Shown: in pieces, positions 50,670 to 50,963 of the stretch | How positions within the stretch are numbered: the stretch's first letter is position 1 | Layout: every line of letters begins with the position of its first letter | NCBI GenBank assembly: GCA_035221665.1 | Contig: CM069164.1 | Location: 26,970,001 to 27,034,000 of the forward strand | Direction of reading: 5' to 3' | Origin: Okamejei kenojei | Lineage: Eukaryota | DNA length: 64,000 bases | Notes under the pieces: model-generated | Seen by the model: the letters and a program-made list of their open reading frames with translations, nothing else | Databases searched by the model: none | Told to the model about the DNA's origin: nothing | Translations under genes and position numbers: made by a program

Positions 50670-50963
50670 TATCCATTCTTTATCACCTTCTCCACAGCTA
50701 ACAATGGACCATTGTGGGCTCCACGTTCTCTTGATCATCCTTGCTGGCTTTGATTTGTCCTTTTGCTTATCTTGCATTCATTTGCTCAATATATCTTTTC
50801 ATATCTTTCGTTTCCCTCTTCCCTGACTCTCAGTCTGAAGAAGGGTCTCGACCCGAAACGTCGCCTATGCCTTTTCTCCAGAGATGCTGCCTGACCCGCT
50901 GAGTTACTCCTGCTTTTTGTACCCATCTATTTGCAAACCAGCATCTGCAATTCTTTCCTGCAC
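50670..50963 (+). mobile_element. Longer Penelope-like 3' UTR/pLTR fragment with intact hammerhead core
   Basis: Pyrimidine-rich stretch then cagtctgaagaagggtctcgacccgaaacgtcgcc. Confidence 0.8.

Follow-up and report, generated by a model that had tools for sequence, protein, structure and literature searches.

The window analysed here is a stretch of 64,000 nucleotides from Okamejei kenojei (GCA_035221665.1, contig CM069164.1, positions 26,970,001 to 27,034,000 of the forward strand). It contains a COUP-TF (NR2F) nuclear receptor gene at 14761-18077 (+; E 7e-96 to COUP-TF2), whose zinc-finger exon spans about 14.76-14.98 kb; two exons for the ligand-binding domain follow at 15.7-16.3 and 17.8-18.0 kb, all on the plus strand. 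About 33 kb downstream of this gene lies a repeat copy with a hammerhead motif. The copy, at 50643..50964 (+), is the 5'-truncated 3' end (pLTR) of a Neptune-type Penelope-like element (PLE) of the older subfamily A2, and consists of a 3' UTR remnant, the hammerhead and a tail. It is 81-84% identical to L002-L005 over about 300-320 nt, and in the relatives L002, L003 and L010 the C-terminus of a PLE endonuclease is found upstream. An earlier note on this DNA had placed the copy at 50826..50963; the hammerhead copy itself was recovered there, while its 5' limit had to be moved upstream to about 50643. The module downstream of the hammerhead, together with the tail, occupies 50865..50964 (+) and ends about +128 from C3 of the core, at the distal of two fixed 3' ends.

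Read from the sequence, positions 50833-50864 (+) form a complete minimal type I hammerhead, with a 28-base motif at 50835-50862 in the order CUGAAGA, A, GGGU-CUCG-ACCC, GAA, ACGU and C. The 5' arm of stem I (G2.2 and U2.1, 50833..50834), identical in 7/7 subfamily majorities, is followed by the catalytic core from C3 to A9 and an additional A ahead of stem II (50835..50842), in agreement with the consensus in Fig. S3 of PMC4209133. Stem II (50843..50854; 4 bp, with G10.1-C11.1 first, and a 4-nt loop) leads into G12-A14, the loopless palindromic stem III (50858-50861) and C17, together at 50855..50862, and the motif closes with the 3' arm of stem I at 50863..50864, all on the plus strand. By the hammerhead NUH rule, the cut is predicted between 50862 and 50863. 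The hairpin proposed earlier for stem II is present, though not as 5 bp with a 2-nt loop: because such a loop falls under the minimum size of a hairpin loop, the stem is better drawn as 4 bp with a tetraloop. Its loop and closing pair differ between the subfamily majorities with pairing retained. The CUGANGA, GAAA and NUH elements are in place, with all 13 core bases present in the window copy and in 7/7 subfamily majorities, H17 being C or U among the latter, and the extra base between A9 and 10.1 as well as the G10.1-C11.1 pair are both found in the window copy. The palindrome ACGU (15.2-16.2), to which stem III had been said to be reduced, was seen here and in all seven majorities, with no stable stem III. 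Helix I has 2 bp, one of them weak, and a predicted pairing probability of about 0 in context. In the window copy its pairs are G50833-C50864 and U50834.G50863, the first stem I pair being U-A in most A-type copies and U.G here. The caution that had been attached to this stem, namely that it spans only about 2 bp, holds for all seven subfamily majorities.

A structural descriptor run on the window and a 400 kb genome sample gave 10 matches, all of them in this Penelope-like family, against 0-1 matches per shuffle in 10 shuffles of the sequence, which excludes chance. With every element read at 50835-50862 and the descriptor matches above the shuffles, the claim of a minimal hammerhead in a dispersed repeat stands. 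A search of Rfam returned no hammerhead among 17 matches at E<=1, the matches being hairpin artefacts of inverted copies. As for a second hammerhead family, inspection by eye of the first 100 of 824 matches revealed almost only mutated copies of the present one. A hammerhead-like motif with an AGCU palindrome (L122, L131) was considered as compensatory evidence and rejected, its stem II being poor and its flanks unrelated to the PLE end. We take this string to be, probably, the antisense strand of a CR1-type LINE ORF; its occurrence in an unrelated repeat is a caution for descriptor scans.

For the analysis of conservation, 297 in-register copies were sorted into subfamilies by tags 3' of the cut site, and seven subfamilies with 6-111 copies were compared (an eighth, with one copy, was left out). 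Across the seven majorities, changes were found at 0/13 core and 5/20 other positions (Fisher p=0.065, a non-significant contrast between subfamilies that are close kin). The five variable positions are two loop bases, H17 (C/U), the stem II closing pair and 1.1. The closing pair changes from U-A to U.G and position 1.1 is A or G against U2.1, both of them one-sided, pairing-preserving changes; no two-sided pair change was found in the stems across these majorities. Inside each subfamily the core has decayed at the same pace as the remaining positions, which is what dead copies should show. When folded in context with RNAfold, both the window copy and a full-length element (L161) form stem II with a probability of 0 to 0.2 and pair the core with downstream pyrimidines, so that the naked RNA is predicted to misfold.

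A profile search identified 32 fragments of the family in the window, 30 of them in a cluster on both strands at 45231..61458 (45.2-61.5 kb) and two others at 21-146 and 1310-1434 (+). The count of over 20 fragments in about 18 kb given in the earlier note was therefore correct and slightly under-stated. It had given about a dozen recognisable cores; in the window 20/32 fragments keep one and match at least 22 of the 28 motif bases, and fully intact motifs, with all 13 core bases, NUH, palindrome and stem II, are present in only 2/32. These have C3 at 50835 (+) and 54471 (-), the latter within a second copy at 54370..54505 (-), and thus lie 3.6 kb apart on opposite strands. Close by, at 54594..54718 (+), is a mini-copy of the young subfamily B that runs from +1 to +125, is 100% identical to L161 and is bordered by a 14-nt target-site duplication. 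No tandem unit with at least two consecutive complete hammerheads was found in the window, and tblastn detected no remnant of a PLE ORF within the 64 kb. Several of the window fragments are head-to-head inverted pairs (near 48196, 50555, 56625, 61027 and 61370), with junctions in or near the hammerhead; such pairs could fold back at a near-palindrome immediately ahead of the core and at stem II, which is self-complementary.

The motif has 62,260 exact matches genome-wide and none in the reversed control. In 80 stretches of 10 kb picked at round coordinates, two of which adjoin the window, the profile search found 397 fragments, or about 0.5 per kb; extrapolated from these stretches, the genome would hold, as a rough estimate, about 1.4 million. 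The copies are dispersed, and tandem units are rare among them (L267, L091). Around the NR2F gene, between 1435 and 45230, there is no family fragment in 41,652 unmasked bases, where about 20 would be expected at the genome average (Poisson 1.5e-9, clumping ignored), and the next 16 kb hold 30. This suggests that the fragment-free block is under regulatory constraint and ends sharply near 45.2 kb.

The source of these copies was traced through the endonuclease, whose C-terminal peptide gives 98,479 first-look candidates genome-wide. In 20/30 loci picked by this C-terminus a hammerhead lies downstream, mostly 80-250 nt away. Among 20 long-ORF loci examined, reached by way of a PLE-like protein, three (L161, L162 and L163) are full-length with the motif in both pLTRs; in the other 17 the motif is downstream, and the upstream repeat is absent only from those that are 5'-truncated. 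The three full elements have open frames of 1190-1197 aa, with one motif copy 126-127 nt upstream of the frame and another 237-238 nt after the stop, and their two terminal repeats, 3935-3955 nt apart, are identical at 130/130 positions around the motif. Domains were identified on one full element, L161, whose ORF is a single frame with a reverse transcriptase (RT; RVT_1, E 5e-6) followed by a C-terminal GIY-YIG endonuclease (E 0.004), both matches falling below the Pfam curated cut-offs. The frame carries DKG, YIDD and YIG motifs and, between RT and endonuclease, a CX4CxxC linker of the CX2-5CxxC type at residues 1052-1060. A sibling C-terminal piece from L025 matched a protein annotated PF01541, and pieces of this element also occur, at 73-87% identity, in two skate proteins. 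The element likewise shows partial tandems, an inverted 5'-truncated partner and a 30-40 nt tail. A long proline-rich, low-complexity stretch separates a short N-terminal domain from the RT (L161:4314-5700). At 97% identity, the proteins of L161 and L162 indicate that the family was recently active.

With the same motif in both pLTRs of three full elements, and an ORF with RT and GIY-YIG in one of them, the link to Penelope-like elements drawn earlier was borne out, and it is virtually certain that the repeat is a PLE pLTR carrying a minimal hammerhead ribozyme (min-HHR). In the portion of PMC8557442 available, the CX2-5CxxC linker is given as a mark of Neptune and Nematis; going by its sequence the element is a Neptune-type PLE, with the clade taken from the linker alone, which Nematis shares. 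Other features held in common with the endonuclease-bearing (EN+) PLEs of the Neptune clade as described there are the RT with its C-terminal GIY-YIG, the partial tandems that form pLTRs, the inverted 5'-truncated partners and the tail of 30-40 nt. The present element differs from them in the long proline-rich N-terminal half of its ORF (about 1185 aa) and in target-site duplications that reach 25 nt and lie in ordinary sequence, with no evident microsatellite target.

The hammerhead class is already described, and this family is a further member of it in a Neptune-type element. The likeness to the PLE min-HHRs of PMC4209133, as far as its accessible text and Fig. S3 go, extends to the CUGANGA core, the extra base before stem II, G10.1-C11.1, the loopless palindromic stem III, the NUH site, the position in both pLTRs and the mass dispersal as solo and opposite-strand copies. 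Stem II is short here (4 bp). Helix I spans 2-6 bp in Fig. S3, and compared with the 2-bp G-C cases shown there stem I is weaker, its first pair being U-A or U.G. On all testable sequence features except helix I strength and covariation, the motif is thus a PLE min-HHR. Cartilaginous fish are absent from that figure, and we found no publication on this family in them in a partial coverage of the literature. The copy number, at 62,260 exact matches, is far above the 4,000-9,000 that the same source reports for coelacanth and Xenopus.

To see what RNA had been inserted, the ends of young copies were surveyed in subfamily B (55,388 genome matches to a 19-nt anchor), using the first 100 consecutive copies along one contig. 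Their 3' ends lie mostly at +87..+99 or +124..+132 from C3, in the PLE tail, with clusters at about +89-94 and +125-131 that are about 35 nt apart, and these two fixed ends are inferred to be RT start sites. The 5' ends fall at -31 or further upstream in 29 copies, at -7..+7 in 56, at +10..+18 in 7, at +19..+28 in none and at +29..+44 in 8, with the cut predicted at +27/+28. The density is 3.7 per nt in the -7..+7 cluster and 0.02 per nt immediately before it. A small number of the 56 clustered starts come from a sister subfamily whose upstream sequence differs, so that they are not true truncations. A wider set of 168 copies was reduced to 156 by dropping 12 from the sister subfamily. Among 40 plain short copies, neither inverted nor tandem, 34 start at -7..+7 and 2 at +28..+36. 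Inversion is common in the cluster (30/68 young copies beginning at -7..+7), and the target-site duplications often adjoin the element's 5' end. Among 40 copies that include the start of the ORF, 10 align to -4..+4 (3 of them from other subfamilies), 7 begin further upstream, 1 exactly at +28 and 22 elsewhere downstream. Something thus fixes an end immediately ahead of the hammerhead core; judged by titles, we found no publication on such a 5' end cluster. With starts mostly at or upstream of the 5' edge of the motif and none at the cut in the survey of 100, the inserted RNA was mostly uncut.

These observations are very probably explained by a PLE terminal-repeat end whose hammerhead is probably slow and dependent on both dimer formation and protein, with the scattered copies as probably inert RT by-products of uncut RNA. 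A promoter in the pLTR would transcribe a tandem RNA, and the RT-endonuclease would bind the module 3' of the hammerhead and prime at one of the two tail sites, as suggested by the copy ends and by the available part of PMC11167929. The RT would copy backwards until the RNA ends or it falls off, crossing the upstream ORF or, if primed in the first repeat, running over about 95-130 nt to the RNA 5' end, often accompanied by a fold-back inversion. The two hammerheads of a tandem transcript could pair through the palindrome and cut, splitting the ORF from its priming site. Such cutting would be slow, would occur when two copies pair and protein refolds them, and would trim or inactivate the transcript, so that cleavage may be a processing or dampening step unneeded for insertion. 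We lean towards the view that the master RNA cleaves under some condition, be it dimer formation, protein or both. Cleavage of the window copy itself in vivo is very unlikely: it is old and 5'-truncated, a probably inert fossil for which the window offers no intact partner on the same strand, and a dimer in cis is improbable because the second intact motif of the window has the opposite orientation.

In several respects this arrangement resembles the Poseidon element of Anolis (PAc; Frangieh et al. 2024, PMC11167929), which, in the available part of that account, has two internal RT start sites, two fixed 3' ends and uncut RNA as its main template. The anole hammerhead is reported there to cut only with protein, to be dispensable for insertion and to have no read ends at its site. 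The two differ in layout: the PAc ORF begins within stem II and contains the priming sites, whereas in the present element both end sites come before the first ATG, which lies about 162 nt 3' of C3.

A different view of the motif, which we doubt without dismissing, is that it is a catalytically dead relic, the same bases being kept for an internal promoter or for RT or RNP binding. The stem I of just 2 bp, the predicted misfolding and the missing cut-site peak among plain short copies all speak for it, as do, in the portions available, an internal TATA-less promoter with a downstream element of the same ACGT core in Drosophila Penelope (PMC2377424) and the success of Naiad PLEs without a hammerhead (PMC8557442). 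However, variation among the subfamily majorities is confined to positions that a hammerhead tolerates, helix I likewise has 2 bp in published PLE hammerheads from Culex, Drosophila virilis and Oikopleura (PMC4209133, as far as available), and the anole motif cuts once protein is added. The opposite extreme is the model put forward in the accessible text of PMC4209133, in which an efficient dimer ribozyme releases unit-length or circular RNA as the transposition template. A perfect core, the palindromic stem III, two copies per tandem transcript and the one ORF-start copy beginning exactly at +28 would fit this model, and in the wider set 13/156 young copies start at +28..+36 against 1 at +19..+27. 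The apparent peak of 5' ends at the cleavage site was nevertheless rejected, since 8 of the 13 starts fall at inversion junctions and 3 more reflect tandems or indels, leaving 2 plain ones. Most insertions, moreover, still contain the site in uncut form, their starts lying about 30 nt before it, and with priming sites 3' of the cut, a cut unit would presumably lose them from its 3' end. Efficient release is for these reasons most improbable here. The same source finds no monomer activity and low dimer activity for a Schistosoma motif.

It is also unlikely that the short copies, instead of being truncation products of full elements, form a non-autonomous family that propagates itself in the manner of a SINE or a retrozyme. 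Fixed ends with adjacent target-site duplications and the density of about 0.5 fragments per kb are what such a family might leave, but the young ones among the short copies match the full-element pLTR at 92-100% identity, several of them at 100%, and no short-only subfamily was seen. The available text of bioRxiv 10.64898/2026.07.22.740005 describes non-LTR retrozymes as PLE-derived, non-coding and provided with a type I hammerhead, all of which is reminiscent of the present copies, and reports them in one chondrichthyan. These retrozymes are defined as tandem arrays, however, whereas the copies here are dispersed as single or inverted pieces with rare tandem units. Identity with a tandem retrozyme was rejected for the window, where the two intact motifs lie far apart and in opposite orientation.

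The cluster of 5' ends permits a further, tentative reading in which the hammerhead sits at the very 5' end of a capped RNA, transcription starting at an initiator-like YCAGTC three bases before C3 and cleavage acting as a self-decapping switch. With such a start stem I could not exceed 2-3 bp. The copies of 95-130 nt would be cDNAs primed in the tail of the first pLTR and run to the cap, and each would be a self-contained promoter-plus-priming module. If this were true, a protein-assisted cut at +27/+28 would remove the RNA from translation. The bases at -5..+1 resemble, in our estimation, the initiator consensus, and the 34/40 plain short copies together with 7/40 ORF-start copies that begin at -7..+7 are in line with a start there. 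An internal TATA-less promoter is reported for Drosophila Penelope in the available part of PMC2377424. Because a cap would be copied as an extra G, we counted G before the element starts. Single extra bases between duplication and element are G in 4/5 cases, and G precedes A(-3) in 1271/3580 genome matches (36% vs about 28% expected), in 13/23 independent loci (p=0.004; 30 before 7 repeats of three composite or duplicated loci were merged) and in 10/18 loci without inversions (p=0.014). Over all plain short starts the figure is 10/34. This evidence for a cap G is mixed, and for a cap origin of the 5' end it is suggestive only; the cluster may instead reflect an RT stop at that point or the use of YAG as a 3' splice site.

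In terms of splicing, a donor-like site overlaps the first ATG of the ORF (L161:4308-4320), and a pyrimidine tract with YAG precedes the hammerhead; back-splicing between them would yield a circle of about 160 nt containing the motif. Neither a back-splice joint of this kind nor a GT..AG joint onto the YAG before the core was found among the 15 of 110 joints listed from assembled contigs. An extension of stem I by splicing, on the pattern of D. virilis, in which helix I marks the end of an intron, was considered and rejected with no supporting joint among those listed; the donor-like site at the ATG would, besides, itself furnish that AG.

As a hammerhead find the family adds little to a class already described. 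Its value is as a fossil record, with tens of thousands of young copies that map two RT start sites and an RT end at the ribozyme's 5' edge rather than at its cut. The copy ends thereby support, in a genome, the in-vitro claim of uncut RNA as template, and mapping of 5' ends makes the role of PLE hammerheads testable. Two larger repeats (L309, L312 and L314; L322, L324, L328, L336 and L337) each contain an inverted PLE stub and were multiplied as composites, so that their copies have flanks in common.
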